A stretch of DNA of 64,000 nt, from the NCBI GenBank assembly GCA_973895155.1, contig OZ316891.1:15407037-15471036 (forward strand). Direction: 5' to 3'. Source of the DNA: Marsupella aquatica (taxonomy: Eukaryota; Plantae; Marchantiophyta). Numbering within the stretch: position 1 is the stretch's first letter; every line of letters starts with the position of its first letter. Positions 2,458 to 28,239 of this stretch are shown in pieces. The translations under genes and the position numbers were made by a program. The notes beneath the pieces were generated by a model. That model saw only the letters and a program-made list of their open reading frames with translations, searched no databases and was not told the origin of the DNA.

Positions 2458-3405
2458 CTACAACTGCAAAACCTGCAAAGTAGCACGGTGTCTTGAGAAA
2501 CTCTCCAAATGAATCACCTTGGTAAAGGCATCAGCGGGATTGAGCTTTCCATCAATCTTGACTAGCTCAAAAGTCTTATCAGACACTACTTGCCTAATAA
2601 AATGGTACCTATATCAATGTGCTTCACCCTGCTATCCATCACTTGGTTAGCAGCCAAGTGAAAAGCACTCTGACTATCACAGTTTAGAGTCATTTTGCCA
2701 TGCTCTAAACCCATCTCCGCGATCAACTTATCCAACCAAATTGCTTCCTTTGCTGCTTCTGCTGCTGCAACATACTCTGTTTCTGTAGTAGACTGAGATA
2801 TATACTTCTGCAAGGTAGATTTCCAATTGATACATCCTCCTCCAAGAGTAAATACAAACCTAGTTGTAGACCTCCTTGTATCCAGACAGCCTCCATAGTC
2901 AGAATCTACATAGCCAACTAACGTTCTATCTGATCTTGCATCAAATAGTAACCCATAATCATGTGTTCCCTTCACATACCTGAGAATCCATTTCACAGTA
3001 TCCCAATGTACTTTCCCTGGATGACATGAATCTGCTAACCTTGCCCATCGCTAGGGCCAAGTCAAGCCTAGTACAAGTCATCAAATACATCAGATTGCCT
3101 ACTGCCTTCTCATAAGGAATCTTAGCCATCAGACCTTTCTCCACAGCATCCGTAGGAGAGAAAGCCGATGATAACTTGAAATATGAAGCTAAAGGAATAC
3201 TCACTGGCTTACAGTTTTTCATGTTGAATCGTGCAAGTACTTTACTCGCATACTTGCCTTAACTCAAGCACAACTGTCCAGTATCAGAGTTCCTAAAAAT
3301 CTTCATCCCTAAGATCCTCTTGGCCTTACCAAGATCCTTCATCTTGAATTTCAGAACTCAATTTTGTCTTGAGTTTGTCAACCTCAGATTGATCTTTAGC
3401 CACAA
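2458..3405 (-). pseudogene. Copia A pol: RT C-terminus and RNase H, with frameshifts/stops
   Basis: EFKMKDLG, LMYLMTCTRLDL, GYVDSDYGG..DTRRSTT, SQSTTETEYVAA, CDSQSA..KHIDI and NPADAFTK motifs; stop at 2458-2460. Confidence 0.9.
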
Positions 3406-4782
3406 AGTGGTGGACCTAGCCACCAAGCGCCCTCACCAATCCCAACACTTGCGCCTAAGTGCCCTTGATGCCCGAACGCATCCACGAAATACCTCGAGCA
3501 AGCATCCAAGTGCCTCTAGCACCACCTGCGGCCACTCCCATACGAAGTCGCACTTGCTCACCTACACGACCGCTACTCAACGGTCCTCACTATCTGCACA
3601 AACAACCAGCACCTCGGTAAGTAACCCCTCCGGATCTAGAACTCGCCCAGTCTAGCATCCTAACTCAAGCTCAACAGATGTTGGTAAATAGGTCAGCGAT
3701 AGGTCCTCCCGATGCCATAAGCTGAAACCAGAACCCACACCCACTATCCGTCCAGGACAGCTCCTTCCTTGGGCGCGGCCCGGGTTCCCCCTCGTACCTA
3801 TCCATCACCAACTGACCGCACTGACCTCAGGACATGATCATGGCCCAAATAGCGTAGCTTGTCCTAAAGCTCGTCCCAAGCTTGTCTCAACACGCCAGGA
3901 CCAGAACGGCCCCAACTCTAACACCCACTCCCGGTTCGCTCCACTGATGGTCTAGGGACCGAGCGCCCTTGGGACTCAACCTCCATACCTACTTGGCCTT
4001 GCCTCCCCAACACAAGCTCTCTTGGGAGGCTGAACACGGCTTGGCTGCTGTTCGGCAGGATTTGGCAAGCGGGCGAGCTAACACCCGCAAACCACGAGAA
4101 CCCATGGCACCCCCAGACCCAGCTGAGCTCAGGAGGGCGTAGCCTTTCTCAAGAGCTTTCCAGCGCACCTAAGAAGTCTTCCAACGGACTTCTCGTTGGG
4201 AAGATATCACCATTTTTGTTTGGCAGTTTCCCTTAGTGTCGCGACCGCCGCGGCTCACGACTTCGGCTCGGCCTTAGCCCCCCAGGGAGACACCACTCCC
4301 CTCATATATGTTTCTGGAGACCTGCCACCCCCAGACCAACTTTGGTCCCTAAACATTTGGCCCCCAACCCGGATCCCATCGCGCATAATGGGCGCGCCAC
4401 CAACTGGCAATGCCCATAACTTTCTTGATAGGCATCCGCAAGCGGAGTGCCGTAGCACGTTGTGACCGGGCTGACCCCTGGACATGCCTAGGCCCTCAGG
4501 TCTGATCGCCGCTCGGGGCCCCCGACCGGCCCAACCTGGATCGGGCCACAACTTCTGCCAATGGCGTCAACTCCATTGGCCTTGGGCCCAAGAGGAGCTC
4601 ACTCTCAAGCCCTCAGAACTCAAAGCCCCTCCGACGGTCCGGATGGCCAACCTCGAGCCCGACCCATTTCTCCTTGACCCTACCAGCCGTAGGCTAGTCC
4701 AAGTCCTTAGTGTGTGTCCTCAGCTTGACCCCTTGCCTCGCTAGTGCCACGTCTCATTGCCCACAAGTCTCCCCATGCTAAG

Positions 4783-5079
4783 TGTAAGAAACCGTCGGCT
4801 CCAGACTAGACAGCAATGCGGAAACATGAGAGAGACTCACTCAATCAGACGCTACACCAACAAGACACCCCGAGTGGAGAAACTCCTGAAGGCTCCATAG
4901 CAAATGAGAGTACATGTGAAGAATGAGGGAGAGAGTGCTCTCCCTCCAGCCTATACCTCCAAGGGGGCCAAGATGAGTGGGCCTAAATAAGCAGATCTTA
5001 TCCAAATATAATCTAGGGTTAAAACTAACCCTAGTAAGGCCAAGCTAACTATGTTAGGAACTAGAGTCAATTCCTAACA
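4783..5079 (-). repeat. Copia B 3' LTR (297 bp)
   Basis: TG..CA ends. Matches 11103-12072 minus the MITE, with 7 differences counted by eye, all transitions. Confidence 0.97.
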
Positions 5080-5146
5080 ATCTCCACCTTGACTCAAGTT
5101 CACACAATGAGTCAGGTGATATACAATATGTAACTAAGTAACATAT

Positions 5147-8100
5147 TTACATAGTCACTGGTTTGGCCCTAACATTAATAATATCCACACAATGACTAAA
5201 GCTACTGGTAGGTAAAACTTTGGTAAGCATGTCTGCCGCATTCTCCTCTGAAGCCACCTTCTCCAGAAACATCTGCTTCGTCTCAATCACCTCACGAATG
5301 AAGTGATAACGAATATCAATGTGCTTTGTCCTGGCATGGAACACAGGGTTCTTAGCCAGATGCAAAGCACTTTGACTGTCGCACAACAGCACCGGTCTTT
5401 CAGGTGAAAGACCCAGATCACTCACCAATCTCCGTAGCCAGATCAGCTCCTTGGTTGCCTCACATGCAGCCATGTACTCAGCCTCAGTAGTAGACAAAGC
5501 AACACAAGATTGAGTTGCCGACTTCCAGCTGATACAACCTCCACCCAGCATAAACACATAGCCTTTAGTAGACTTTCTGTTATCCAAGTTACCAGCATAA
5601 TCTGAATCTACAAAACCTTCCAACTCTAATGTAGAGTCTGCTTTACTGTCAAATAAGATCCCACAATCTAAGGTACCTTTCAGATACCGCAAAACCCACT
5701 TCACTGCTTCCCAGTGAAGCTTACCAGGATTTGCCATAAATCTGCTCAAAATGCTAACAGCATGGGCAATGTTAGGTCTAGTGCATGTCATTGCATACAT
5801 CAAACTACCCACAACACTATCAATGGGAACATGTTTCATCGCCAGTCTATCACTCTCACTAGAAGGGCAATCATCCTTTGAGAGTTTAAAGTGGGAGGCC
5901 AATGGAGTACCAACTGGTTTTGCATTCTCCATTCCATACTTGGCAAGTACCTTCTCCAAATACTGCCTCTGAGACAACCATAATTACCTTTGCTCCCTGT
6001 CACGATGAATCTCCATCCCTAGTATCTTCTTGGCGTGACCCAAGTCCTTCATTGAAAACTCCTTACTCAACATTGCTTTCAGATGGGCAACATCAGACTT
6101 ATTCTCAGCCAAGATCAGTATGTCATCCACGTACAATGCCAGCACAATGTAACCAAAGCGTGAGTAATTCTCCACCTCCTTCATGTAAATACAACAATCA
6201 TGTTCACTTCGTGTGAACCCCTGAGATAACATGAAGGAATCAAAACGCTTATTCCACTGTTTGGGACTCTGCTTCAATCCGTATAACGAGCGCAAGAGCT
6301 TACACACCAAGTGTCTGGTCTTCTCATCAATAAAACTTGGAGGCTGAGTCATATAAATCTCCACATCAAGCAATCCATGCAGGAAAGCAGTAATTACATC
6401 CATCTGATCTAACTCAAGATCATAGAATGTCACAATCGCAAGTAAAACACGGATAGTAGCGAGTTTGACAAATGGTGAGAAAATCTCCGTGTAGTCCAAG
6501 CCCTCCTTCTGGGTGTACCCTTTGGCCACAAGGCAAGCCTTGTAAATGCCATCCTGCTTCTTCTTGTACAACCATCTACACGGAACCAGTGTTTTCCCGC
6601 GAGGCATGTCAGTTAAGCGCCAAGTTGAATTCTTCTTCAAGAATTCATTTCCTTCAACATCGCCTCCAACCACTTATCCTTCTCTGGAGAGGCCATAGCT
6701 TCTTCATAGCTAGAGGGGTCTCCATCTTCAGTAAGCAAAACAACACCGGGATCATCGTCATGTTCAACAACATGAACACGAGGATCTGCAAAACCAAATC
6801 TATTAGGGGGTTGGCCAAAATTGGCCCTGGTGGAGCGCCTTGGTTGAGGAATTGCTCCTCTACTAGAGGGACCAACAGCTTCCTCATCACCACCAAGCTC
6901 CACCGTAGTGGGTTCCTCCACCTGTTCCTCCTGAATATCCTGGGGTCTTGACAACCATTCTTCGTCAAAAACAACATTTTTGCTCACAACTACCTTGCAA
7001 TCGATAGGATCCCACAATTTATAGCCCTTCTGCCCAGGACTAAAACCTAGAAAAATACATTTCTTAGACTTGGGATCCAACTTAGACCTGTGTGTCTGCT
7101 CAATGTGAACATAGGCAGCACAACCAAAAACTCAGAGTCTAGAGTAATCAGCAGGTCTCTTATACCACAACTCAAATGGAGTCTGCATCAACTTACTACT
7201 ATGCGGTGACAGATTGTAGACGTATGCAGCTTGGTTGACAGCTTCAGCCCAAAAGTTGTTGGGCAACTTGGACTTACATAGCATGTTGCGTGCTTTCTCC
7301 AATAATGTCCGATTCAACCGTTCTGCAACTCCATTCTGTTGCGGGGTCTCCGGTACAGTGTAATGACGCTTGAGGCCAAGGTCCCGACCAAATTGATCAA
7401 ACTCATTGGACTTATACTTGCCACCGTTATCGGACCGAACACACTTCAACTCCTTCCCAGTTTGTAGCTCTACCATGGCTTTCCACTCCTTGAAAATCTC
7501 AAAGACTTGAGACTTCTCCTTCATGTAGTACAACCAACACATTCGAGAGTAATCATCTACAAACGTCACAAAATATCTGGCTCCACCCAACGACGGCTCC
7601 GGCGCTGGACCCCAAACATCCGAATGTACATACTCAAGAATTTCATGAGAATGGTATGAACTAGAACTGAAACTCACTCTCCTCTGCTTGCCGAAGATGC
7701 AATCTTCACAGAAAGAGAGTTTACCAGATTGAGCGCCTTGCAACAAATCTCTGTTTGCCAAGGCTGCCAATCCTTTACCGCTCAAGTGCCCCAACCGTGC
7801 ATGCCACAAATCTATAGCTTGTGTGCGACCAGATGTTGAGGGTGCTTCAATTGAAGCAGCCGTAAATGACTCTATAGCAGATGTTGCCGCTGCATCCGAA
7901 CGTTCCACCACAGAATCCACATGCTCCACTCTAGGAGCAATGATATCTCCTTCCAAGATGTACAAATTATTCTGCCGTAGCGCCTTAATCAAAGATACAT
8001 CATCTTTGACGACAAAGAGCGCACCATCACGTGCAGTGAAATGAGATCCACCGGCTTCCAAAGCACCAAGAGAAATCAAATTCTTAGAGATGTCTGGTAT

Positions 8101-9412
8101 GTGTTTGACTTGCGTCAGTGCTCGCACAACACCATCAAACATCCGGAATTTGATAGTCCCCATGCCAACAATCGCACATCGGACTCCATTTCCGATTTCC
8201 ACAGTACCAGTACAAGGTTGGTAAGTGGAGAAATACGATTGCGTTGGACACACGTGATAAGAGGAACCCGAATCCAACATCCATTTATTGTCATATACAG
8301 AATTCACTGCACCAATACATAGCACTTCAGTAGCATCCTCATTATCAGCAATCACAATACCAGCCGACGATGAGGACGCACCATTGGAAGCAGGACGCTT
8401 CTGCTTCGATAGAGAAGGACAATTCCACTTGGTGTGGCCCTTCTCATGGCAATTCCAACACTGAACTTTCTTACTACGGGACTTAGATTTAGACGTACTA
8501 TGTGATTTAGATCTAGACTGATCCGTAGTACGCTCCGTCAATCTGCCTCTAACCACTAAGGCAGCAGACTCATTGTCACGGCCAGAAAGTTGTCGCTTGC
8601 CCCATTCTGCAAGAACGGTAGCCTTCACCTCATCCAATTTCAACGTAGACTTGTCATGTGTGATGACCGTCACCAATGTTGAATAGGTCTGAGGAAGCGA
8701 CATCAACAAATGCATCGCAAGATACTCATCGGGCAACTTGTCTCCTGCCGTGGTCACCTCGTGCACAATCTCATCGAAGAGACTGAGGTGATCACGCATG
8801 TTGCCACCATCCTTCAACTTCAACCTGAACAGCCGCTCCAAGTGATAAATGCGAGTAGTCAACGAAGTACTCTGGTATAGCTGAGTAAGCATATCCCAGA
8901 TCTTCTTGGCATTCCGATCCATCCCCAACACGTTCTTGAGAATGTTGTTTGCCAAGAACAACTCAATTGTGCTACATGCCTGCACTGACATGTCCTCCCA
9001 CTCCTCATCTGTTAGATTCGAGGGTTTCACTCTAGTGAGGGTCTTCTCAAGACCTTGCTGGATCAACACATTGGTCACCTTTCGAGTCCAAGTGATAAAT
9101 GCGAGTAGTCAACGAAGTACTCTGGTATAGCTGAGTAAGCATATCCCAGATCTTCTTGGCATTCCGATCCATCCCCAACACGTTCTTGAGAATGTTGTTT
9201 GCCAAGAACAACTCAATTGTGCTACATGCCTGCACTGACATGTCCTCCCACTCCTCATCTGTTAGATTCGAGGGTTTCACTCCAGTGAGGGTCTTCTCAA
9301 GACCTTGCTGGATCAACACATTGGTCACCTTTCGAGTCCAGAGGCTGAAGCTGACCTTCCCGTCAAACTTCTCCACCTCAAACTTTGGCGCTGCAAGCTT
9401 TCTTGAAGTCAT
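5147..9412 (-). pseudogene. Copia B gag-pol polyprotein, inactivated
   Basis: KFEVEKFDG (gag), CWNCHEKGHTKWNC zinc knuckle, WMLDSGSSYH protease, WHARLGH plus HSDVWG..RSDNGG..QNGVAER integrase, YVDD RT, RNase H. Lesions: 250-bp duplication in gag, stops at 7132 and 5984, frameshift near 6640. Confidence 0.95.
8837..9340. repeat. 250-bp tandem duplication in Copia B gag
   Basis: tccaagtgataaatgcgagtagtc starts at 8837 and 9087. TCCA microhomology at 8837, 9087 and 9337. One mismatch seen between the copies. Confidence 0.95.
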
Positions 9413-11102
9413 TGATGCTGCCACAAACATAAAGGAAATACACAACCGAAATACCTCCACCCAAAAATTCACCAAAAATTGAAAGTTGGCGAAAGTGGAA
9501 ATGGAATGCACCGCCGCGTAGCCTGCAAGGTACACTGCCAAGATCTGAAAATAATTCGGCGAAAAACTTCTTCAGCAAAAACTTATTCAACCCGGACCAG
9601 AGGGTTTTGACCCCCCGTCAGGTATCTTAGGTCCTGAAAAAATTTTGCAACAGCAACGCACAAATCAATTTCACTAGCCCGTGCTCAACTCCCTTGAGTA
9701 TCCCCTTGCAAAGTGTCGCAAAAAAATTCTGCCTCGACGACCGATGAAATTGAAAATTTCAGTCAAAAATTAGCTCTCTGGAAAAGTATCTTTTCCAGGG
9801 AATCAAAGTACAGTCAAAATGTACAGCAGAAAGAACGTGGAGCTAACACCTGTCCGATTGGAAAATAAAAGATCCAAACACGGAAGGAAAAGAAAAGAAA
9901 ACAAGTAAAAACCCTTTGGCTTTTACAAAAAAATTAAGAACAAAAAGACTACAATCGTCCTCCCGGCCTTCAATTTCTTTTCAAAAAAAATACTCTTGCA
10001 CATAGGGTCGCGCGCCTGCCCATCTCCTTGTTCACCTATTTATGTACGCTGTACCTAGCAGAGTACAGGGATATATAATACCCCCTCGTACCCCCTCCCA
10101 AATCTGTATTGTGTAGGTACAGTAGTACCTTTTGTGTCCTTGGCCACCCACCTGATGCAAGCCTTAATTAAAGGCTCCAAAGTGAAAGGAGCCTCGTATG
10201 CTCCCCCTCCTCACTTAAAGTACAAGCATAGGGCCTCGTGCCCATGTTAATAAGTGCTCCCTAAGGAAAGTAGTATGCTCGCTTCCCCTTTCCCCTCCTA
10301 TTGCTTCTGCATAGGGCAATGGCCCCCTTAAAGCTCCCAAGAGAAGGGAGCTTTGAACTCCCCCTCCCCTCACTTTAAAACTGTACTTATAGGTACGATT
10401 GTACCTGCACAGACGTAAGGCTGTGCTCTAGTACCTCATAGGGCCTTGGGCCAGGGGCTCGACTTTCTCCTCTGCTCCTCCTTCAATCCTTTGTATTCCG
10501 AGCCCTCCTGGCTCACTCGCGCGCATAGGGCAACGTGCCCGGGCAATAAAATCTCCCTTTCGCCCTCTCTCCGCACATACGCAAAGAAACCCGTCCGCAC
10601 CGCCGTCTTTTGTTGTGAGGCGGCACAAACAAAAGTATATGAAAAGAAAAAAAATTGCAACATCGGGCCCTCAACGCACGACCTTTTTACAAAGAAAACA
10701 ACTTTTTTCGGCCCCACACAAGATTAAGTCGAAACATATACAAGCCATAACCTAGAGCATCAAGCTCTAAACAGCAACCTCAATCTACAAGATTACTCGG
10801 TACACCAATGATGAAAAGCAGTGAAACCTTCACCAAAACGTAGTGTCCACCGACGCGCATAAGAGATCGCTAGACTGTCCTCTTGACAGTACTTCAAAGA
10901 ATAGAGACACATCCGACACTCCAGGCTGAAGTTTCAATCGGGAAACCGTCACTGTATTCACGAAATCTTCAACGTGAAATGACCAGTGAAACAATCACAC
11001 AATCATCGACGATGATTCAATCTTCCACCACAATCCAACACAACGAACGCTCTCATCACTGCCCAAGCCACCAAACCATGAACACGAAGCTTTGATACCA
11101 CT

Positions 11103-12072
11103 TGTAAGAAACCGTCGGCTCCGGACTAGATAGCAATGCGGAAACATGAGAGAGACTCACTCAATCAGACGCTACACCAACAAGACACCCCGAGTGGAGA
11201 AACTCCTAAAGGCTCCATAGCAAATGAGAGTACATGTGAAGAACCCTGGGCCCCCAGCCTTTGTAAACTAAAGAGGTATACGTGCGTACACCCCCCTCCT
11301 TAGTACCCCTTATTATTTTTGGAAGCCTATAAAAATTTCTCTTGTTATTCTTAAAAACTTAATTTTGGAGAATAAATCTGCCCCTTTGAGATATTATAAT
11401 TTCACATTTTACACCATTTATGAAAGCCTTGAAAAGTTATAAATTCATCATTTGCACACGGTTTTAAAACTGACGGGAGTGTTTTGGAAGGGTTTTGGGT
11501 ACATACATTTTTGTGTTCGTGACCCTTTAACCCCAAACTTCAACTTTGGGGCATTTTTGAACCACACGGCAGGGTAGTCAGGGTTCAAAAGCTCCAAAGT
11601 CCTAAACTACTCTGAATCATAGATATTGCAAGCATAATTATATGTCATATACACATGTTCCAATAAAGGGTGGCCACAAGGACCAATCCTATTGTGACGC
11701 GTGTCACATCCATATTACATCACCTCTTGAAGCATATTAACTTGGGCAACATTTATATAAGCCTATATTAGTTAGAAAGGGTTCTTTGAATAAAACCATC
11801 CCTTGATATTTCTAAGCCAATTATAAAAATTAATCTCAAATCAGATTTTTTGCACCCTTCATCCGTTCGCACGTCCAACCCATTATTAATAATGCTGGGG
11901 GCCCAGGGGTGAAGAATGAGGGAGAGAGTGCTCTCCCTCCAGCCTATACCCCCAAGGGGGCCAAGATGAGTGGGCCTAAATAAGCGGATCTTATCCAAAT
12001 ATAATCTAGGGTTAAAACTAACCCTAGTAAGGCCAAGCTAACTATGTCGGGAACTAGAGTCAATTCCTAACA
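11103..12072 (-). repeat. Copia B 5' LTR interrupted by a MITE
   Basis: 970 bp = 297-bp LTR + 665-bp insert + 8-bp duplication. Confidence 0.95.
11244..11908. mobile_element. MITE, 665 bp, perfect 15-bp TIR, 8-bp TSD
   Basis: TIR ccctgggcccccagc / gctgggggcccaggg. TSD GTGAAGAA at 11236-11243 and 11909-11916. The empty site is visible in the sister LTR. Confidence 0.95.
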
Positions 12073-12625
12073 CTAAGTCCTCCCCGGATGGCCTATCCGG
12101 GCCTGGACCATAAGGGAGCTCGGCGTCAGAGTAAGCGACGCCGGAGCTAAGTGTTAAACCACAACTAATTATATTTAAACTTTGGGTGACCCGGAGTTAA
12201 CATACGAAAAATGCGATAGTCGCGTTTGCGGACGGGCGCTCATCCGTGACCCTGCGATCGCCACTCACAAATATCTCATCCATTCACGAAATCTGGCAAT
12301 CTACGGCTCAAAATGACGCTCTTTCAAAGATCTACGGCTGACAAAAATCAGCACTCAAAAAGCACCCAAAATGAGCTAGAAAAACAAGAAAAACGAATGA
12401 AGCATTTTGATTGGTTTAGGGAGGAAATTTGAATTTTGAATGTTCGGGCAGGACGGGCAGGGACAGGTGGCTTGTGGAACTAGCGGGTGAAAGGTAAGGG
12501 GGCGACGGGGGTAGTGGGCATTGAGCAGGCGCTGACCGGGTTGCAATGGTTGAGGCCGCAGGAACACCCTGGCCTATTGCGCAGCTGATTGTTCAATTAC
12601 AGTTCTTGGTTCATTAGTAACGAAG

Positions 12626-12697
12626 AGTCCCCCTATGCCATTGGTTAGTACATTCGCCTCCGAAGCAACAGGTCCTGTGTTCGAACCTTGCAGACTG
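12626..12697 (+). other. Degenerate tRNA-like sequence (possibly Arg-CCG derived) or SINE head
   Basis: A-box-like tgccattggttagt, loop cgc-ctccgaa-gc and B-box-like gttcgaacc at tRNA spacing. Stems are poorly paired. Confidence 0.4.
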
Positions 12698-13174
12698 CGG
12701 TTCTGTTGCGCATTTGCTTTTGTCCTATGTGGGAACTATTTGTAAATCAGCTGGGTACATGGCAGCCGATGTTTTTAGGGTTTACACACTATAACCCTAA
12801 TTCCCATGGTTTCCGGCCCAACCTCACTCCATGGGGCAACAGCCTGGGGTAGAGGGATTGTGCAAGGAGGAGCAACCTTGTCTCATTCTTCATTCCTCAC
12901 TTTTGCACACAATCTATCTTTACCACCTCCGGTTGTCTTTTGCTGCTTACTTGCTTTCATTGCTTCTTAGGTTTTTCTATTGCTCCTCAACCCTTACTCT
13001 ATCCATTTGGTTGTTACATTTCTTGTTTTGCTGTATTTTTGTAATTTTCTTCATGTGAGTGACAATCTTTGGTCCTTCACCGGGTTTGGCTTGGCATCCG
13101 GTCTCCATTTTTAGGTTAGATTTTTTATAGCTAGGCTCCACATATCTAGGGTTTAGGCTTTGGGGTACAGTAGT

Positions 13175-16100
13175 ATGAGTAATGGGGCCCAGCCTCCTGA
13201 TCTTCCACATGGGAGGCGGAAACGCCCTCCGAGAGGGGGTGGTCCACCTAGACAGTGATACCCGAGTGATGATATAGACTATAAGAAGCGACGGAGACCG
13301 GATGCCAAGCCAGAAATCCGGGTCCCACTTGAGAGGTGGGATGAGTGGGAGAAGCTTAGATCTTTGTTAGGACAGGATACCACACACTCTACTGTTGTGA
13401 CATGGTTAGCGAATTTGTCCCAACCTAGAGTTCAGGAGCTCCGCGCATGGCGAGCAGCAGAGGCGAGGCAGTTTCAGCAAGAGAGAGACAGGGGCCAGGC
13501 TTCACAACCACCACTTCAGGTTGGGACACTACTTCATTTCCCCAAGTTTTGCTAAATGTTTAAGGTCTAACTACTAGGTTTATGTTGTTTTAGATGCAAA
13601 ACTATTGCTTAGGGTTTATGTTCATTCCTGTAAATTTTACCTCATACTACTCACATCCAATAATGACAAAACAAAATATAAACCTACCTTCCTAAATGTT
13701 CCTAGGGTCTAACTACTAGGGTTATGTTGTTTTAGATGCAAAACTATTGCTTAGGGTTTATGTTCATTCCTGTAAATTTTACCTCATACTACTCACATCC
13801 AATAATGACAAAACAAAATATAAACCTACCTTCCTAAATGTAAAACTATTGCTTAGGGTTTATGTTTTGCCAAAAATTCCTGTAATATTTACTTCTTTTG
13901 CATGCAAAACTATTGGTTAGGGTTTGGGTTTTTTCCTGAAAAGTTTACCCAGACTACTCACAACAAGACATATATGAATAAAATTGAAACATTGTACTCT
14001 GGTCTAAGTACTCTGGTTTCTATACTCTTTCATTCACAATTATTAGTATGATTGCTTTTACTGACATTCTTTATACACTATATATTATTGGCTAGGGTTT
14101 TATCTATTTTTTGTAATTTGTAGGCTGCAGGCAGGGCTGCATTGGATTCAGATCTTGAATTTGATGTTGACCTCGAGGAGCATATTGCTGAGCAATATGC
14201 ATCAGATGCAGAAGACGAAGCACTTTATCAAGATGATGACCCAGATGCTCTTGCAGCTTTGGGAGCAAATGACATTGTGGATGAGGAAACGACGGTATGA
14301 CTCTTGCCTCTTACATTATGTAAGAAAAAATTGACTTGGACTACAAGTTACACAATGTCTAACATGCATTTGTGGGGTTCTTTTGTCAGGAGGCATTCAA
14401 TGTACCAGACTCCCAGCCTACTGGACCATCGCAAGAGGCAAACCCAACACCATCTCCACTGGCCAGCACTGGGCCTTCTCATATTCTTGACTCTCAGCCT
14501 ACAGGACCTTTGGACCCACAGCCTACTCGTAGAGCAACACCCCGTATGCCAGCGACAGTAGCGTTCTTTGATCGTGAGTTGTTGGGTACATTTGTTGATC
14601 GGCTACTCCCTCGGTGTCATATACATGGTTGTTTGAGGACACCATCAGTTCAGCGAGTGAGAGAGTTACATCAACTCTGGTCAATTCACATTGGTTGTGG
14701 GGAGGATGGACACAATTGGACTTTTGTTACAGGGGAGAATGAGCCTGGGAGGAGTTCTCCTATGATTACACCCAGGTTGTACCATTCCACCCTTTGCTCC
14801 AGCTTGACCTACACCTCCTTGGCTGCTGTTGCCTCACATCTAGGATTACGTGTCCCTACAGCGGCTCATTGGCATGACTTTCAAAGTGGCCGTGGGCGAC
14901 CACGAGGTGGATGGATAGCAGCTGTCAAAGAAGAGTGGGTTGAAAGTAAAAGGCGCATGTGGGAGGAGTTGAAAGACAACATTGACCGGAGGCGGACAAC
15001 TGAGACAGGTTAGTGATGAATTTTGTTATGGTACTTGAGGCTCAATGACTTATTGGCTTGACCAGGTTCACTTGATGTTTCTTACATTGTCCACTTCCTT
15101 TGGCTTATGACAGATCCTGGATTAGTAGTTTATTTAGATACCCGATGGGATTCATCTAGGAGCGGTTTTCATGGTACCACGTCTATTTTGAACGCTGAGG
15201 ATAACAGAGTAATTGAGATGGTCACAATTACTAGGAGGGAGGAGAGAAATGCCTGGTACATGGAGGATAGGGGTACCAAAAAGGCATTAGATAGCTTGAG
15301 AGAGGCAGGGATATCTATCATGGAGGTCATTCATGATGATAAAGCCACTATTGATAATATTGTGGAGGATATGGGGATTAGGAACCAAAAAGACTTGTGG
15401 CATAAGGCAAAGAACCTAGTCAAAAAGTTTGTGGAACAGATGGTGAGTGTCACATACACTGTTACTATTGACATTGATGCTGCCACGTCTCGTTCCCAGC
15501 TCCAAGCAGTTACTACTAAGAGGTTGCAAGATTGGTTGAAAGCACAGGGAGTGAGAGGGTACTCAACCCTCAGGAAGGAGGCCTTGGTCCATAAAGTCGC
15601 CGACATGCGTGGGTTGCCTAATGAGGAGCTAGTACATTTTCAGACTCGTGGTTTAAAGTATCCAGAGTTGTCACAACATAACTTGGCTACAAAGTTCAAG
15701 ACCTGGTTCTATGTATGTTGCCGTCGTTGTAAGACCAGGTAACTTTCATGCATTGTCCTAACTTTGGATGACTTCTTGGATTTTAATTTTATGTGTAATT
15801 GTTATGATATGGGTTGAGTTTAGGGTTGAGAATTGAGTTATTAATGATTTTTGTTTTGCCAGTTTAGGAAATGCAGAGTCATTGGCCTTTGAGTTGGGAA
15901 ATTGTGCCGATCATTGGGCTGGTGATCATGCATTATGTGCAAGACTATCTGATCGACCTTGTCAGCATCTTGGGAACCCTGGAGCCATTCAGCTTGACCG
16001 TTATTATGAGAGAGGTAATAATTGTTGTTACTTATTGCAAGTGTGAATTCATCTGGATTTTATTATATGGTGACTTTATTCACAAATAAGTATACTTATT

Positions 16101-16507
16101 CATCTGGATTTTATTGTACATGGTAATTTAATTGGGATATTTTGCTTACAGGTTCTGAGACTCATGTAGCGATGCAAAAGTTCATGAAGAAGTATTTTAC
16201 TCCCACAAAGATGAGGTTTTATACCATGGCTCGGGAGAACTTCATGTCCGAGACCTACCACTCTGTGATGGGCAAGTATGCCATCAAGCGTATTCATTTC
16301 TCGGCTAGTCATGAGGCTCGCTTATGTTGTACTGCCTTGGACTGGAATGAGAATATTCGTCGGCATGTGTGGAAGGTATATGATCGCACGCCTGTGAACA
16401 CAGCTGTTAGGGAGCGCCCTGGTTGAACGCGAGTACTGGTGGATCGGACCACCAGTTGGAAGGACCGAACGAGTGAGCGCATTTATGGAGTATCACCTCC
16501 GGCTTAG
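13175..16507 (+). pseudogene. Spliced Kolobok-type DDE transposase (6 predicted exons; two TGA codons probably from CGA)
   Basis: Approximate exons 13175-13519, 14124-14294, 14390-15008, 15113-15738, 15863-16014, 16152-16507, with GT-AG introns. Motifs: YLDTRWDS (D1), YMEDRG, VIHDD (D2), KDLWHKAK (DxxH), HWAGDHALC, SETYHS (E), KYAIKR..F...ARL..ALDWNEN. Stops at 13256 and 16424. Confidence 0.8.
13553..13920. repeat. ~142-bp tandem repeat in intron 1 of the transposase
   Basis: aaaactattgcttagggtttatgtt recurs three times; two nearly full units plus partial copies. Confidence 0.85.
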
Positions 16508-17660
16508 AACCCAGATTAAAGTATTGAGGTAACTGAATTTTCCCAGTGGCAATGTAAGAAGATTGTTATGTGTTGATGATAATTGAAATTAAATCTTTAT
16601 TTGGTATAATTATGTGGGTCATGTTCAGGATAATTGAGCTGTGGTCAACATAGTGGTCAGTATACTTATGGAGTGGTGCCTCCATGAAAGACCTCGGCTA
16701 ACATACTTCATGTGAGTATAGGCAATAAAATTAGTTGATTGAAATAGGTTTCATTTTACTGTAAAGATGGTTGTCATTGTGTACCTCTAAAATGGTTGTC
16801 ATTGTTGCAGGGGTGATTCTCTTGAGGAGGGCCGAGACCTGACTAGAAAAATGATGACCTGACACCAGTAGTATTGGGCTTTCTTTTAGAGCTAGTACAA
16901 GTTGGGACTCAAGGCAAGAGCTATGGATGGAGCTTTTGACTCTCATATGACAGCTAAACAAAACATTGAAATTTTTATTTTGTCTTTTTGGTGTCATTTT
17001 GTGAGTGATGTTGTAACTATGAAGATGCTTATTGTGGTCAAACAAATCTGAAGGAGTTTATTCTACTTTGTTGTCTTGGTGTTCTTTTGTGAGTGATGTT
17101 GTAATTTGAAGGTGCTTATTGTGGTCATACAAATGTGAAGGTGTTTATTGTGGTAGAACAATATTAGAGACTACAAGGAGCCAAGTTTGGAGGGTGCCAT
17201 TTAGAGACTCCAATGAGCCAAATTTTTAGGGTGCCATTTTAGAGGCTCCAATGAGCTGTAACTACAAGGGGTAATGCAATGCAATTTGAACATAAAACAA
17301 TGAGTGTTTGGTGATAAAAGTTGTTTGTCATGCACAGTATTCGTATTCAGACATAGTAGAGTTTACAAAAAAAGTGACTCAAGAACCCTTTCTGTGGTGT
17401 AGCATGTACTACCAAGTTTTGAGAGGTGCAATGGGAAGGAAGAAATGAAGATATATAATATACAAGGGAGAATGTAAACAAGATAGCAAAAACTGTTTCT
17501 AATGCAAATTTGTTATTGTGTTCCTGTAACATGTACTCCCAAGGGGAATTGAACCCCTTATGTTGCCAACCAGCAGGAGTTGTATTCTGCAAAAAACTTT
17601 ATTAGTCATATCAAACATTGAAACAAAATCATGAAGTATGGCAGAAGCCTCTCTAATCCC

Positions 17661-18059
17661 CTAATTAGGAAGGAATCCTACGAATTCCTCTCCTTCATCA
17701 TGCCAAGTTGCTTTCACAGAAGCTTCAACCGGTTCAGGAAACTTAGTTCTATCAGCATACCCTGCTACATATGCCAAGTGAGTGTAGACTTGGTATCTTT
17801 TTCGTCTCATAACAGTTTCAACATAACTATATGCAGCGCACATGATCAACTGTTCAATTGGGACTACGGGGTTGAGATCATCGTGACACTCTGTAACTGC
17901 GGTACAAAAATCTGGAAAATCAGCGTGGACCTCTTGCACAGTGACAGTCCGCATAGTGGGTGGAGTGCCCTCAACATCACTAGGATCCTGCCAGGTGAGA
18001 TTGTAGATCCCATTGCCATTTTCAGTCAACATGGCTCTCAATTTTCGTGGCGGGGCCAT
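17661..18059 (-). CDS. KolX-like accessory protein (~132 aa; P2X7 ballast/Zcd-like C-terminal motif)
   Basis: Likely start MAPPRKL at 18059, just after a candidate splice acceptor. The C-terminus RRKRYQVYTHLAYVAGYADRTKFPEPVEASVKATWHDEGEEFVGF fits the R.R..AY......G...R...P.CV...IR..FP.....Y.GF pattern. It is convergent with the transposase. Confidence 0.7.
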   Translation of the reverse strand: MAPPRKLRAMLTENGNGIYNLTWQDPSDVEGTPPTMRTVTVQEVHADFPDFCTAVTECHDDLNPVVPIEQLIMCAAYSYVETVMRRKRYQVYTHLAYVAGYADRTKFPEPVEASVKATWHDEGEEFVGFLPN

Positions 18060-19620
18060 CTTCCTGACACAATACCAATCATATTCACATGTCACTTGCT
18101 GCTCTTGACCAACATTAGCAACGAATGTAAATTGAAAATGAGACCCTGTTGTCACGGCAAAAATAGCAGCATCAACACCAAAAAATCTCACAGCACTTTC
18201 AACAACTGAAATGGCAGCAACAGTGGGGAGAAATCCTCGAAGAAAGCTCATAGCCAAAATCAGAGCACCAAGAGCAGAACTCCTGGTAGCACTACCTTGC
18301 CACTGAAATCCAACAAGCAACAAAGAGAAATCCACAACACCAAAGGCAGCACCAAGACCTGCAATGCTCACAACTGAATCGCTCCAACATCCGAGAGAAA
18401 TGCACAACAACAATTGCAACATAGAAATCTGAAATCCTCACAGCAGAGAGCGCAACATAGACATATGAGAAACTGCAGCAACTCGCAGCTGAAATTCTAT
18501 GAACAGAAATGGCAGCAATAGCAGAAGAAATGAAGCACAAACCTGAGCAAAGAATGATCAGGCCCAATCGGTATCTCAAACTCGGGCAAAGCTCGGGCAA
18601 AAAGCTCACGCACTCGCAGCAAGAGCATCCAAATCGTAGCCTCAACTCCTGGAGCAAAAATCTGAGTAGTATATTGAAAGGGGAACTCCACCCAGGCCAC
18701 AATAGAATCGAATGAGCACAAGCAAGGCTCACAAACAGCAGCACAGGCTCTGCATCTTCCTGTCGAGCTGAAGGGCAAGAAACAACAACAGTTCTCTCCA
18801 ATTTGAGCTGAAATGATCAGGAGAAATCGAGACAAAATGATGAGGAGAAATGAATTGAAAAACGATCAGCAACCAATAAGCTATGGCATCACAAAGCATA
18901 GCAAGCTTGGCAGCAAGGCAAGCTGCTTTGTTTCCCCATGCTATGGCAGCGAGTCCAGCAGTAGACAATGAGTGGGAGGAGCAGCAAGCAAGCGAGTTCA
19001 GCAGCAGGCAAGTAGCGAGGATGGCTGCAAGGTAAGCAGGATTCAATAAGATAACGAGGTTGGCATCGAGTTGAGCAGCTGGCTATGGCAGACCGGATGT
19101 CTTGGGAGCGGTGGCAGTGAGTCGAGCAGCAGGTGAGCAGCAGGCAAGCAAGTCAAGCAACAGGAGAGCAAGTCGAAAGTAGGCGAGCAAGTCGAACAGC
19201 ATGCGAGAAAGTTGAGCAGCGAGGTTTGCAGCAAGTCGAGGAGTAGGCTCGCAGCTAGCTATGGCCGCCACTAAATCTTGGCAGCAATGGCAAGTCGAAC
19301 GCGAGCGAGGCGACGAGGAGGCGAGTGAGTCTCACAGCATCTCTTGGCAGCGAGGTTGGTGCTCGCAGCTGGCTATGGCAGCCAGCCCATCTTGGCTCCT
19401 TGCAGCAACGGCCGCTGCTACCAAGTGCTAGGGCTGGGAGGGGGGCTGCAGGGAGGGGGGAGCGCTGCAACGACCGGGAGGGCTGCACCGGGTGAGGCAC
19501 GGGTGAGACCAGGGCACCCTGCGCTCTGCCTGACCTGGGCAGAGTGGCCCGTACGCGCGGGCAGGCTTGGGGGGCCTTTATACCCCGAGTGGTGGTTTAA
19601 GGTAGTCGAGTTCCACGACT

Positions 19621-20440
19621 CACAATCAGCATGTCATCCACATAGATAACCAGAATGATGAAACCAAATACATCATTCTTGTCTGATTTCGTATACACAC
19701 AAGGATCATACATCATCCTTGTAAAACCTTGAGCAAGCATGAAATCATCAAACCGCTTGTTCCACTGTCTAGGAGATTGCTTCAATCCATACAAGGACTT
19801 GAGCAATCTACAAACTAAGTTCTCTTGGCCCTTCTTCATAAAGCCTAGTGGCTGTCTCATGAAGATCATCTCTTCCAAGTTGCCATAGAGAAAAGCAGTA
19901 ACAACATCCATCTGATCCATCACCAGACCAAAATATAGAACAAGTTGACACGAGATTCGAATTGTGGAATATTTTGCCACCGGTGAAAAGACCTCATTGT
20001 AATCCACTCCTTTCTTCTGAGTGAATCCCTTGGCAACAAGCCTTGCCTTTTAGATCTTGTCTCCACCCTCTGAAGGACTGTCCTTCAACTTGTAAATCCT
20101 GCAGCTTGCTCCTTTCCTTGAGCCTGAGGCTCATCAAGAGAGACTTCTTGTACAGCCAGTCTGACGCATCTTCCCGCAGTACTTCTCTCTTAGAGCCTTG
20201 AATATTGACGCGCAATCCGCATAATCATCATGCTTCTTGATGATGTGCGGCTTGAGATAAAACATCACTGCATTGACAACAATCACCTGCTTTTATCTCC
20301 ACTGCTTTTCTGAGATCTTCTCTGAGATCTCCTCTTCTCCATCATACTGTTCTCGCGAAGAGAGTAGATGAAATAAGCCCATGGCCCGTAGAACACCCTT
20401 CACTTGCTTCTCCCATAGCAAGTAATCAGTACGACCATCG
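19621..20440 (-). pseudogene. Copia A gag N-terminus fused by deletion to the RT N-terminus
   Basis: gag (KFEVEKYDG..LWEKQV, LYKKSL) runs directly into IYKLK..KARLVAKGF..DYNEVFSPV..QMDVVTAFL..YVDD near 20098. Zinc knuckle, protease and integrase are absent. Confidence 0.88.
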
Positions 20441-22089: not shown

Positions 22090-23841
22090 CTACTCCTCCT
22101 CCTCTTCACTCATGGTGCCCTGGCTTGAGCCCCGTGAGTGGGCCTCCTCATCACTCTCCACTGGAGTGAGTGCCACTTCACTCCTCTTCTTCTTCACCGG
22201 GGTACTCCTTGTGCTAGTGCTCCCTTGTTTCCTCAAATTGGCCAAGGCCTGCCACGCCTTAATGTACCCCTCACCAATGGTGTTCTTCCATAAGGCCGCC
22301 TCTTCACCGGACCGCAACTCCAACGGTAAAACCTGCCCGGTGGCCATGGGAGTCCCAGGGGTGACAGATCGGGGTGGCATCCCCGAGGTCCCCGTGTTGA
22401 CCTGAGCTTCTCGTAACGATTTACGTACCTCCTTGAGCTTCTTCTCTAAGCTCTTGCTCTTCTCTTGACTCTTCTTGGCTGCATCCAACAGGGGTCCATA
22501 CTTCCCACTGATTTCCTTCACCACCATCTCAATGGCCCTGGAGATCAAATTCGGGGAAAGTGTGGGGCTAGGTGTGCAGGGGCTCTTCCGTTTCCCCAGA
22601 CTCAAGGCCTCACTCCTCTTAGCCCTTGTCTCAAAGATCACCATTTGACTCCGTAGTGCTCCCACCTGGGCTCTTAACTCCACCACTTCTCCAGAATTCT
22701 GCTTCTCTTTGGCCAGTGCCTGTTTCAATACTCCAACCTCTTCCGCTTCCTTGGCCTTGGTGGACAAGGCTCCTTTCAAGTTGGAGATCTCTACGTGAGC
22801 TGCTTGGAGAAGCTTAACCTTCTCATGAATGACCTCCTCCTTGGCCTTGATCACCTCCTTCATAGACAGGGCACTCTGCTCCAAAGTCTCTACTCTGGCG
22901 GTGGCCTGCTTGAGAGAATCTCTCAATGTGTGGCCTAGCTTGAGTCCCTCATGGACTCCCTCCCAAAAATCCCGTAACTCCGCCAGGTAGACATCAGGAA
23001 TGTCGTAGACCAGGGGCTCCTTCGGATTTCCCACAAGTGATTCAAGCCACTCCAATGTGGAGTCCTCATCCTGGTTTTCTTCCTCTCTATTATCATCCCC
23101 AACTGCCGATGATGATCCCTCCGTTAGTTTCCCCAAGATGGTAGTGGCAATACTCCTGATTTCCGTGGTAAGGGATGATCCAAAGTCTTCTTGTCCCAGG
23201 GAAACAATCCACCCTTCTGCTATGGCCAGCAAAAATGACCCCATCAAATGTACAGCCCCACCTGGTTTCACACTCCCGGGATCGGCGTCCAATAGCTTCT
23301 TCAACCCGTAGTACCACCATCCGTACACATGGGCTGGATAGTTCTTGATGTCCATAGCTACCACGAAATGCTCTCCATTCACCACCCCGGATTGTACGTT
23401 ACCAAGGATCCGTTGATGAACCTTGGCCAGAAATCCCTTGTGCTCAGCATCCTTGACGGCGGAAAGAGGAATGGAAGTAGTGGAGGTGGGATTAATCACC
23501 CAACCGGCCACCATTGTCAACGTGAGCTCTCCCCTTATGTTCCGCGGTGTGAATGAGAATTGCTGGTTCTCCAGAAACAAAAGCTTAGCTAACTCCACAT
23601 GGGGCACTACCCATTGGAGACATTCAAAGTAGATTCTTTCCGTACGTAACTCCATCCCGGCCTCAATGTTCCAATTCTTCCCCGAAAGGATTGTAATCTC
23701 CACCTTCATGAACTCCGTGAGCCCGGTGGCTTGAAAAATATTCCTACAATCCTCCATCACCTTGGCGGAGGTTTTGGGATAAATTCGACGGAAAACCTTC
23801 CTACTCACCGGTGTGGAACTTGCCGCCAGCCCAGTACTCAT
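22090..23841 (-). CDS. Uncharacterised transposon-associated protein (~583 aa from the first ATG): globular N-domain, acidic linker, long coiled coil
   Basis: Uninterrupted 1.78-kb ORF. Heptad-like E/K/L-rich segment (LKQATARVETLEQ...VELRAQVGAL). It lies between the PBS and gag of Copia A, on the same strand. Confidence 0.7.
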   Translation of the reverse strand: MSTGLAASSTPVSRKVFRRIYPKTSAKVMEDCRNIFQATGLTEFMKVEITILSGKNWNIEAGMELRTERIYFECLQWVVPHVELAKLLFLENQQFSFTPRNIRGELTLTMVAGWVINPTSTTSIPLSAVKDAEHKGFLAKVHQRILGNVQSGVVNGEHFVVAMDIKNYPAHVYGWWYYGLKKLLDADPGSVKPGGAVHLMGSFLLAIAEGWIVSLGQEDFGSSLTTEIRSIATTILGKLTEGSSSAVGDDNREEENQDEDSTLEWLESLVGNPKEPLVYDIPDVYLAELRDFWEGVHEGLKLGHTLRDSLKQATARVETLEQSALSMKEVIKAKEEVIHEKVKLLQAAHVEISNLKGALSTKAKEAEEVGVLKQALAKEKQNSGEVVELRAQVGALRSQMVIFETRAKRSEALSLGKRKSPCTPSPTLSPNLISRAIEMVVKEISGKYGPLLDAAKKSQEKSKSLEKKLKEVRKSLREAQVNTGTSGMPPRSVTPGTPMATGQVLPLELRSGEEAALWKNTIGEGYIKAWQALANLRKQGSTSTRSTPVKKKRSEVALTPVESDEEAHSRGSSQGTMSEEEEE

Positions 23842-23927
23842 CGTAGCTTTTCTCTCTTCTCTCTCTTGCAATCAATGTCTCAACGTAGTCATGGTAAGCA
23901 GCCTTGTATCTCCGAACGCGTGCCGCA

Positions 23928-24214: not shown

Positions 24215-27008
24215 GTGCCGCACTAAACTCCGGTTGATCCAGCATCCATGCATCCAGAAATCAAATCCTCAATCACCAAATCCCGTCACCCGTAGCAATG
24301 TCAATCCCCTGGCCCAAAACGGCCCCCTATCCCAATCAATCAATTAACCTCAATTCCCTCAGAAGCCACTCCGTGCTGCTGCCGCTAATGCCCGGAAGAA
24401 TCATGCCCACAAGCCCCAACAATTGACCATGAGAAAGAGCTTCGAAAATAAGTGTAAGAGCTGGTAGAGAGCTTTCGGCATTGGGGAAATTGCTTTCGGA
24501 AATGAGGGCAGAGTGCTTTCGGCCAAGAAAGGAGTTGCGCGCGCGGAGAAGGAAGCAAAGGAAAAAAAACCAAAGAAAAAAACAAAGGGGAAGGAATTCG
24601 TTCCTCCCCGTTTTACCCCGAGCCAACCTCCATGCGCCTGCCCCCTCGCGGCTGCGCCTGCCTCCTTGCTCCTGCCCGTGGCTGCCACCTGCGCCGACCT
24701 CCCGGCTACCGGGAGCATTTAATGCCCCTCCCGGCCCCGTCACACAGCCCTATGCAGGGCGCGTTTCCTCGCCCCGGCAGCTCCCCCTCGTTTTTTTCTT
24801 TGCAATTCCCATCGTGCTCGCGGGAGGGCATTATGGTCCCCCCCCCTCACTACTCTGCTCGCGGGAGGGCGCGTTGCCTCCTTACTCCCGGCTTGCCCCC
24901 GGTCTTCGTGCCCTATTGCCTTGGGTTCTGTTGGTGGGCTCGCGGCCCTATGCAGGGCTCGCTCCCTCCTTGCGGTACCCCTTTTACTCGCGGAGCCCCG
25001 ACAGCCCATTTTCTCCCCCTCACGGCTGCGCCTTGCCTTGCGCCCCGACAACCCTTTTTCTCCCCCTCGCGGCCCTATGCAAGTCTCGCGGCCCTCTCCT
25101 CCGTTCACTCGCGGGGCCCTTTTAATTGGGCTCCTTAAGAGGGGTTTAATCCCCCGTCCCAACTCCTTCTCGCCATGCGCCCCGGCTGCCCCGCGCCCCG
25201 GCTGACCTTATGGAGATGCTAGGTGGCGTCCACAGGGGCTGCCCCTTATGGACCCCCTTAAGGTTTCCACGTGTCGCCTCCAGGGGTGCTCCCTATGGGC
25301 ACCCCCTATTCCTCGCCCCTTTACTCCAAAAACTTTTAATTTCTCAAAAGAACACATTCTCTTCTTTTGGCCCTTGTTGTGGTTATACCCATTTAACCCC
25401 AAAAAGAAAAGTTAACCTCTTGGACTTATAGGGGAAACTTGACAATGGTTCAAGCGAAATGGCCAGGCCACCTCTTTGCCCCCCCTCCTAGGTTGTCGTG
25501 ACCGTTTAGAACAATTCTGAGAAAAATAAAGTAAAGTCCTCCTGGTAGCACCAACTTGAAAGGACGGAATTAACTCAAAAATTAAAAAACTGCTTATTTA
25601 CAGTGGTTATTTACATAACACAACCCAGTAAACAATTATTGAGGATTTTCGGTGACGGGAACCCCGTTACAAAAGTTATCGTTCGGCATGCAGAATCTTT
25701 ATCGGACGACCAAAAAACAACTCTCTATTTTTTGGGAATATTCTCGCACAGTCCGACAAGTCTCACAGGGGGCCGTTCCCCCTGTTGGAACGGTTAAAAT
25801 AGAGGGCGGCAGGTCCCGGCACAAGGAGAACAAAGGGGAGGAAAAAATGGCTTTAAAAAGGTGTCTTAAAGGGGGTGCTAAGCCCCTTAGACCTTAAATA
25901 CCCCGTAAAGAGCCGGGTATACGTCGACAAGGGGTATAAGGGGCCGCAAAGGGGGTGACACGCGGCCAGCTACGGCTGCATACGCAGCCAGATACGGGAT
26001 AGGGGGCGAAAAAATGCCGTGCGCCGGGGAGGGGCACCGGCAGGAGGCAGGGCAGGGCGCAAGGAGGTGGCAGGGCCGGCAGCCTGAGGCGAGGAGCGCA
26101 GGAGCCCAAAAAAAATTTGGACAATACTGTGCGAGTCGGCCCGGGGTTGGGACGGCTATTATTGCGCCGGTCGGCGCTGCGTAGTAGGCCACGATGTTGA
26201 GTGTGCGAGGAGGGGGATGGCGGGAGGTACGTACGAGGGAAGGGGGCGGAAACGTGTGTATACACACGAAAAAAGTGCCCTTAAAGTAACCAAAAAATAA
26301 TAATGCTATTTTCAAAGAAAAAAGCCGGTTACACACCTAAATCGCCGCTATTTTAAACAAGAAAACAACGAGTTACCGATGGGATATGTTGCCGAATCAC
26401 ACCAGCGCCGTCTACAACTCTAGTACTGTAAAAGCTCTCCGTCGCATCATCTTCACTCCGCGTCAAGTGCCAATCCCGGGCTCAAAACAACCGCCTTGCC
26501 GCGATCAAATTGTTGAGCCGTACCACTTCGCGTTTCTTCCATTGAGTTGGACGCCACGAAGAGAAATCCGGTTCAGATGGGAACAAGCTCCATAGCTTGT
26601 GAAAAAACCTGAACGCCTCCGTCACTCGTCACGTCGCACTCGGTAACAACTCGACAGCAATCCAGCTATCGGAATGAATAGCTCGCTTCAACCTTCAACT
26701 TGAGCTATAATGTGCGATCCCTCCCGCACCGCACAACTCACACCTTTGAAAAATGCAATCTGGTCTCTCCCCCGAAAACCCGTCAAACACGAATAAAACC
26801 TGAACGACGCAAACTTTGATTCCTCCGCACCATGGATACCGATTAGCGAGTTCTAACCACCGTTAGAGAGCCCTCTCACTAACCTATTTGCTCAGCCACA
26901 CACATTTGAGTTTCATGCGACAAAACTCCGAATGTAACACCAACAATGAATGCTGGAAAACTGTCACGAATAAACCTTGTCTCCTCCCAGGTATGCTCTG
27001 ATACCACT

Positions 27009-27352
27009 TGTTGAGCATAGACGATATTTGCAATGGCAAGCCCATGAACCATCCAACGCACAATAGTCGACACAGAGAGATACGTGGTTCACCTCCACAT
27101 GAGGCTACGTCCACAGGAACACACAAGAGCTTTACTGCACTCTAGGCCGAACGGCCATACCAAGCATCCACAACACAAGCTCTCCCTATCTCTCAACTAG
27201 CTCCGTAACAATGAGCCTAAGTTCCACGAGGGTCTGGCATCAGCCCTGGCTTAATACACTACAGCACTACCGCTAACATTAGTTAAGTCCTAACCTGAGT
27301 TAGACTAACTGTGGTTAGCTCATGAGTCACAAGACTAGAACAATATCTAACA
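27009..27352 (-). repeat. Copia A 5' LTR (344 bp)
   Basis: tgttgagc..tctaaca next to the iMet PBS. The same family recurs at 63438-64000. Confidence 0.92.
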
Positions 27353-27609
27353 TCAAGTTAGTGTCTCCACCACCACCTCTGCTCTGAAAGGTAGGCAACC
27401 ACTACCATCTTTATCATGGATTTGTAAAGGTGACAAAACTAAAGTCCCTTGATTGTTCAGATTCTCAATCATAAACAATGCCTCATCTCCAATTGAAATT
27501 ACTGAAGTGAGAAAATTGCTGTAGGATCGACTAGTGGTAGACGAAGCTCTCTGCAAAACAAAAGGTGCTACTGCTTGAACTGGACTATGTCTGATATAGC
27601 ATGGTCATC

Positions 27610-27668
27610 ATTCAAATTTGCAATGTCCCTTCAAATTTGCAATGTCCCTTCAAATTTGCAATGTCCCT
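27610..27668. repeat. 19-bp minisatellite, 3 copies
   Basis: (ttcaaatttgcaatgtccc)3. Confidence 0.9.
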
Positions 27669-28196: not shown

Positions 28197-28239
28197 AGAT
28201 CCATCCATACCCCTTTAATCTTGAATTTGACCATAGCAT

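Follow-up and report, generated by a model that had tools for sequence, protein, structure and literature searches.

We analysed a window of 64,000 nucleotides from the liverwort Marsupella aquatica (GenBank assembly GCA_973895155.1, contig OZ316891.1, positions 15,407,037 to 15,471,036 of the forward strand); all coordinates below are window positions. Positions 12158-19596 were read, with a probability of about 0.8, as a broken, TTAA-flanked two-gene DNA transposon from a so far undescribed branch of the Kolobok superfamily in green plants, which would move by cut-and-paste. According to Kojima and Bao (2022; PMC9587614), the defining features of Kolobok are a TTAA target-site duplication (TSD), RR..YY ends, a C/DxxH motif and a zinc finger located after C/DxxH and before the catalytic E. 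The assignment was based on the TTAA TSD, on C/DxxH and on the finger before E, which is missing in MuDR, P and hAT (PMC9587614). A Kolobok-like, apparently undescribed element in a plant host had been proposed in an earlier sequence-only reading of this DNA; that proposal is supported here, and the TTAA duplication, which it had missed, is new support.

Extent of the transposon and the nest around it

Contigs of four public sequencing runs (labelled X1, X2, X3 and X5) were aligned to positions 2800-20300; contig depth in these data does not equal copy number. The transposon has a TTAA copy on each flank, and both termini carry inward-facing inverted ends, ACCAC(A/C)ACT, matching at eight of nine positions. 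The empty site with a single TTAA was seen in 51 X2 contigs, which run on from 12157 into 19601-19620 without a break, and the joint 12154 to 19599 was present in three of the four runs (X2, X3 and X5). On the strength of the TTAA copies, the inverted ends and the single-TTAA contigs, the 7.4-kb two-gene element was delimited as 12158-19596. No inverted match between its ends extends beyond about 9-13 bases. The TTAA duplication was thus found at the flanks of the transposon and at the empty site, and again at the site of a miniature inverted-repeat transposable element (MITE) described below.

The sequence-only reading had taken 3406-19620 to be the two-gene element. This span is a nest, and both the stated coordinates and the 5-bp TSD that splits a Copia reverse transcriptase (RT) frame belong to a separate host element. 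The split itself was borne out: deletion of 3406-19620 plus one CACAA copy restores the Copia RT run YVDDML-IVAKD, and the joint 3400 to 19621 was found in contigs of three of the four runs. The host element is non-coding and high-copy, with 58% GC and imperfect 14-bp inverted ends (11 of 14 matching). Its CACAA TSD was seen at one site; the flanks vary at both ends, and 82 X2 contigs have unlike left flanks at 3406. It matches no superfamily that could be named. A solo long terminal repeat (LTR) with unusual ends and a non-autonomous DNA element are both open readings, and its AG..CT ends and 4-5-bp TSDs recall the solo repeats of KolobokP. Between the two-gene transposon and the right terminus of this host lie 20 bases.

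The clean 5-bp TSD and the imperfect inverted ends at 3406-19620 would suit a single 16.2-kb two-gene transposon, a reading that is nevertheless scarcely credible. Many contigs show the outer element lacking the 7.4-kb insert, and its summed depth (very high over 3384-4551) greatly exceeds the low depth over the two genes. The insert is bounded by a TSD and ends of its own, and the empty TTAA site refutes a single element.

The other insert in the host is an LTR retrotransposon, which we take to be a Copia from its motifs. Its empty-site joint (4777 to 12073) was seen in all four runs. An exact 250-bp tandem duplication in its gag region (8837-9336) may be real or an assembly artefact, and the MITE within its LTR is presumably hAT-like. 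The nest would have formed by insertion of the 1.47-kb host into the old Copia, followed by insertion of the two-gene element and the younger Copia into the host.

Transposase gene and its relatives

The exon model was predicted from the sequence, with splice sites in frame. The six exons comprise 755 codons without a frameshift, all five introns are GT..AG, and the reading frame is interrupted by TGA just twice, at codons 28 and 729, in line with the two nonsense changes of the sequence-only reading. Because of these stops the copy at 12158-19596 is probably dead. In exon 1 the tblastn match to Riccia N-termini starts at 13259 (E about 1e-6). An X1 contig over 16382-16708 is identical to the window, so the TGA of exon 6 is not a window error.

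The catalytic set anticipated as D..D..DxxH..E was confirmed as D387, D453, D472xWH475 and E671. Conservation was assessed in an alignment of 35 core-covering rows (33 by the coverage rule, including the window, plus two Closterium rows; fragments were excluded). Among rows with letters, D387 was conserved in 27 of 28, D453 in 32 of 33, H475 in 31 of 33 and E671 in 27 of 30. The transposase presents a DDE core with C/DxxH and, between this motif and E, an H-H-C-C zinc finger (H604 32/33, H609 31/34, C612 31/33, C620 29/33). In the putative finger of exon 3, C275 was present in 18 of 18 rows with letters and C248 in 14 of 15, with C253 in only 8 of 14. Of the 35 rows, 34 have a SAP-like insert behind DxWH, one only in part. 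The insert was recognized as SAP by Pfam above the cut-off in three relatives (P0004, P0021 and P0025) and by the Ku70 SAP domain (PDB; E 0.0017). Pfam gave nothing meaningful on the window's own exons, the best matches being at chance level; Ish1 matched the SAP-like part at E 0.064.

A search with exon 4 yielded six relatives among 678 candidates, at 32-46% identity (five from Riccia sorocarpa, one from R. fluitans). The spliced window product aligned with the best of them over residues 29-749 at 39% identity, and the matched tblastn segments end at the predicted introns. A profile of these six retrieved 672 proteins with E no higher than 0.001; the listing gave 150 of them, and the sources of 30 of these 150, chosen by length and thus not at random, were checked. 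They comprised 11 from Chara braunii, eight from R. sorocarpa, six from Closterium and one from Calypogeia fissa, so that 26 of the 30 are streptophyte, with one further protein from ENA, two from JGI and one from Logan. Mosses, hornworts, ferns, seed plants and animals were all missing from the 30 checked. The ENA protein (P0056, 891 aa) has near-identical cluster mates labelled Pyramimonas and Prorocentrum. These mixed labels likely reflect cross-contaminated transcriptomes; P0056 may also extend the lineage beyond streptophytes.

A quick tree of transposase cores was computed with neither an outgroup nor reference Kolobok, MULE, P or hAT sequences. In it the window protein pairs with the Calypogeia protein (Shimodaira-Hasegawa approximate likelihood ratio test, SH-aLRT, 96); the group that contains this pair has only liverworts among its named members (94), and the Chara and Closterium proteins are placed apart. 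The relatives likely represent an old, overlooked plant lineage. A plant lineage had been postulated earlier, and the liverwort relatives agree with it; its restriction to land plants does not stand, since relatives occur in Chara and Closterium. The transposase profile found no second transposase remnant in the window.

Intron 1 contains, at 13549-13962, a 142-bp tandem duplication with repeated telobox-like TAGGGTTT motifs. Seven copies of TAGGGTTT are distributed over the left end, the leader and intron 1 and may serve expression.

Related copies with roughly 80-95% identity cover the exons and the small ORF in all four runs and diverge in introns 3-5. A deletion joint (15611-17560), resting on 22 bases, connects exon 4 with the far side of the small open reading frame (ORF) in all four runs. 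C. fissa carries homologs of both genes. The support for linkage of the two genes in other copies is thus indirect. Separation of the two genes in other copies had been named beforehand as evidence that would speak against a two-gene element; no copy with unlinked genes was shown. No other insertion flank of a related copy was found among the 24 loose ends listed (770 further). Of 204 pattern matches in a metagenome scan, one locus remained; it was a bacterial acetylesterase region and was rejected as chance.

The convergent small gene and further window features

The convergent ORF predicted by the sequence-only reading was recovered at 132 aa; a gap of 1,153 bases separates it from the transposase gene (13175-16507). 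The right end beyond it (18060-19596, 1.5 kb) is strongly strand-biased and GCA-rich, with short internal repeats (19247-19282 and 19361-19396). This stretch is probably the leader and promoter of the ORF. Twelve homologs with 50-66% identity were found among 3,482 candidates (two from Calypogeia, one from JGI, nine from Logan), and by these sequence matches the ORF is a conserved gene. Five differences from related copies were listed, a small and filtered sample, with four at third codon positions and three silent. A profile comparison revealed no similarity between the small protein and the transposase. In the search of PDB sequences with the small ORF, formate dehydrogenase rows (E 0.1 or worse) were rejected as chance.

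A model built from 13 sequences had a predicted local distance difference test score (pLDDT) of 84, compared with 62 for an earlier four-sequence model, and comprises three strands followed by six helices. P2X7 was named as the target before the structural search. In the wide search, rat P2X7 (6u9v_A) ranked 18th of 48,161 with a Z of 3.8 and a root-mean-square deviation of 2.9 over 69 residues. Model residues 53-132 were aligned with chain residues 506-594, inside the ballast region, which is given as 476-595 in human numbering in PMC9587614. The last 30 conserved residues align by eye without a gap, eight being identical, with the cysteine-poor KolX-like protein of piggyBac-2_GrCh (Data S6 of the same source). 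Searches in Atlas, where all scores were under 0.9, and in phages gave no P2X7 match.

The window protein has three cysteines and its homologs two to six each; only C74 is invariant among the 13 rows. The seven-cysteine zinc cluster of KolX is absent. The small protein is probably a KolX/ballast relative lacking this cluster. Of the KolX/P2X7-ballast C-terminal motif postulated earlier, the likeness held by eye and weakly by structure; it failed in the hidden Markov model (HMM) searches and did not extend to the cysteines. The similarity is thus weak but specific, and the earlier supposition that the ORF might have no likeness to KolX at all was not borne out.

Feature coordinates are collected in Table 1. 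The 155-bp MITE is likely a non-autonomous relative of the transposon; its termini read AC and, at the right end, AG. Three sites in the window combine TTAA with the end motif, compared with 0.065 on average and at most one in 200 simulations, the motif having been taken from one of the three sites. A 25-bp inverted pair (41621-41645 and 43952-43976) may bound another element; the MITE sits a short way inward of one of its arms.

Table 1 Features of the window around and related to the transposon
Feature	Position	Strand	Details
Host element, 1,472 bp without inserts (3406-4777, 12078-12157, 19601-19620)	3406-19620		AGT..ACT ends; 5-bp TSD CACAA
Inner Copia LTR retrotransposon	4783-12072	-	TSD CTAAG; 297-bp LTRs with 7 differences
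665-bp MITE within inner Copia LTR	11244-11908		8-bp TSD; from sequence
Left TTAA target-site duplication	12154-12157		Window sequence; empty-site contigs
Kolobok-like DNA transposon, 7,439 bp	12158-19596	+	TTAA flanks, inverted ends, empty-site joint
Transposase exon 1	13175-13519	+	TGA 13256-13258 immediately before conserved YPSD start motif
Transposase exon 2, acidic, poorly conserved, least certain exon	14124-14294	+	In-frame AG/GT sites; no tblastn segment of its own
Transposase exon 3	14390-15008	+	Putative C-C-C-H zinc finger about 14615-14713; sequence, alignment
Transposase exon 4	15114-15738	+	D387 (15137), D453 (15335), DxWH (15392-15403), SAP-like insert about 15491-15601
Transposase exon 5	15863-16014	+	H-H-C-C zinc finger 15912-15962 between DxWH and catalytic E
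Transposase exon 6	16152-16507	+	E671 (16250); TGA 16424-16426 removes last 27 codons
Intronless 132-aa ORF, cysteine-poor, probably KolX/ballast-related	17661-18059	-	Convergent; codons 18059-17664
Right TTAA target-site duplication	19597-19600		Window sequence
155-bp TTAA-flanked MITE	41661-41815		Transposon-like end motif; 12 of first 15 bases inverted

Elsewhere in the window, an ORF at 30473-31750 (+) has an F-box and a KIB1-4 beta-propeller, a land-plant family in keeping with a liverwort host, and a 689-codon ORF at 53052-55121 (+) has TPR repeats; both are probable host genes. A 593-codon open frame at 22090-23871 (-) has no Pfam match. A dispersed LTR-like repeat family occurs in several copies, 73-98% alike (27004-28211, 43037-43246 and 63432-63998), and an inverted-repeat element (47086-48208) surrounds a 60-bp tandem array (47660-47959).

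Assignment, proposed mechanism and comparison with known systems

A number of results weigh against a Kolobok element with a KolX partner. Read with TTAA, the termini are AC..GT, not RR..YY, and for this reason the element is labelled Kolobok-like rather than Kolobok. Its placement relative to reference Koloboks is by eye, and the five splice junctions are predictions from the sequence. The sole transposase-family match is Pfam 'Mutator-like' (PF20700), above the cut-off only in relative P0083 and not found with the window's own exons. No contig of the four runs spans both genes in another copy, and the Calypogeia homologs of the two genes are on different scaffolds, hence at different loci among those seen. 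None of the 12 small-ORF homologs comes from Riccia, Chara or Closterium. HMM searches with the small ORF gave no P2X7 among PDB sequences and no fitting Pfam family, and Foldseek with its model gave no match. The Z of 3.8 falls within the noise of unrelated helical bundles, 17 entries ranking higher.

The last of these results bear on a Kolobok-like element whose small ORF is unrelated to KolX, being a lineage-specific accessory or captured gene with a chance likeness to ballast. The lack of HMM and Foldseek matches to KolX or P2X7, the variable cysteines, the N-terminal three-stranded part, which is not aligned to ballast, and the fact that none of the 12 ORF homologs found is from the algal relatives all speak for this reading. 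It is considered unlikely, if the strongest of the alternatives, as the structural match lands on the predicted region and is in register at the C-terminus, the gapless 30-residue motif matches a published KolX-like protein, and piggyBac-borne KolX relatives likewise lack most cysteines (PMC9587614).

The termini, together with the SAP-like insert, not seen in the reference cores compared, and the predominance of streptophytes among the 30 checked relatives, with no animal, would fit a TTAA-targeting sister group or separate superfamily in the hAT/P/MuDR/Kolobok clan that is not Kolobok proper. We regard this as improbable. The element has the TTAA TSD, DxWH and the zinc finger specific to Kolobok. 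TTAA is palindromic, so a TA duplication with AA..TT ends is equally possible and indistinguishable by sequence, and the right end of the related MITE is AG.

MULEs have 8-10-bp TSDs and long terminal inverted repeats, and piggyBac cores are DDD without DxWH. The window element, with its 4-bp TTAA and ends that match over about 9-13 bases, was rejected as MuDR/MULE on these grounds; a grouping with plant MULEs, raised at the outset as a possible outcome, does not fit TTAA and 9-bp inverted ends. MULEs also have no zinc finger before E (PMC9587614). The weak PF20700 matches lean towards MULEs, and piggyBac likewise duplicates TTAA, a few of its members carrying KolX-like proteins (PMC9587614); a plant MULE or a piggyBac is nonetheless very improbable.

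For the Kolobok-like transposon the following mechanism is proposed. A promoter in the left end would drive the spliced transposase, which would bind the 9-bp ends with the aid of its zinc fingers and of the SAP-like insertion. Cutting would proceed via D387, D453 and E671, by analogy with known DDE transposases, and insertion would occur at TTAA, which host repair would then duplicate. The same transposase would mobilise short MITEs. Expression of the convergent small protein would start from a promoter in the right end; a role for this protein as partner or regulator of the transposase is tentatively suggested as the least certain step.

We consider it an even chance that this is the first land-plant Kolobok, part of an ancient streptophyte lineage in Chara, Closterium and liverworts with SAP in the core, non-RR ends and a zinc-free KolX. 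If so, plants would be a further group in which transposons carry the ancestor of the P2X7 ballast along, and liverworts would still harbour near-intact families that mobilise MITEs. A multi-copy liverwort family with intact introns and with Chara and Closterium relatives would enlarge the mobilome of early land plants by a superfamily, and many Riccia gene models named 'SAP domain-containing' would be explained as transposases. A zinc-free KolX common to some piggyBacs would suggest an accessory function in the helical C-terminal part; the role of KolX would be testable via Marchantia genetics, and a native TTAA-specific transposon could become a bryophyte tagging tool.

No description of a land-plant Kolobok family was found in the literature, Repbase, Dfam and subscription journals lying outside the search; the name occurs in Viridiplantae literature only in passing, as trace automated annotation labels. 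PMC9587614 was the only literature found on KolX. The plants that it names as Kolobok hosts are a chlorophyte and rhodophytes, with no land plant. Its Data S5 contains the green-algal Kolobok cores Kolobok_1_KlNi and Kolobok_1_MicRcc299 (KlNi presumably being Klebsormidium nitens), so that Kolobok is known in green plants broadly. These cores have a second CCHC finger after the first D, missing in the window element, which is a different lineage.

The window element shares with the Kolobok superfamily the TTAA TSD, short inverted ends, a DDE core with DxxH, the zinc finger before E and an accessory gene; it differs in its AC..GT ends, its SAP-like insert after DxWH and its land-plant host. By eye its core matches the Kolobok cores of Data S5 motif by motif, nearest to the rows Kolobok_16_CGi/OwFu/MyEd (HD at the second D, DxWH and the H-H-C-C finger). 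KolobokP was rejected, as 12158-19596 has no long terminal direct repeats and no His-Me nuclease match in Pfam.

The Kol0 (Kolobok0) lineage, with the type Kolobok-1_XT, is described from animals (PMC9587614). It has in common with the window element DxWH and a transposase accompanied by a second small gene, whose C-terminus is probably ballast-like in the window element too. The seven conserved cysteines of KolX, which bind two zinc ions (PMC9587614), are missing from the window protein, and by eye the HDD second D and the H-H-C-C finger bring the transposase core nearer to the Kolobok_16_CGi/OwFu/MyEd rows than to the Kol0 rows. On the basis of the missing cluster and the different core motifs, the window element is not of the Kol0 lineage. 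The closest motif match to its small protein was seen in the KolX-like proteins of piggyBac-2_GrCh and piggyBac-14_PI (Data S6), which share the cysteine-poor ballast C-terminus but are borne by piggyBac, not Kolobok, transposases.

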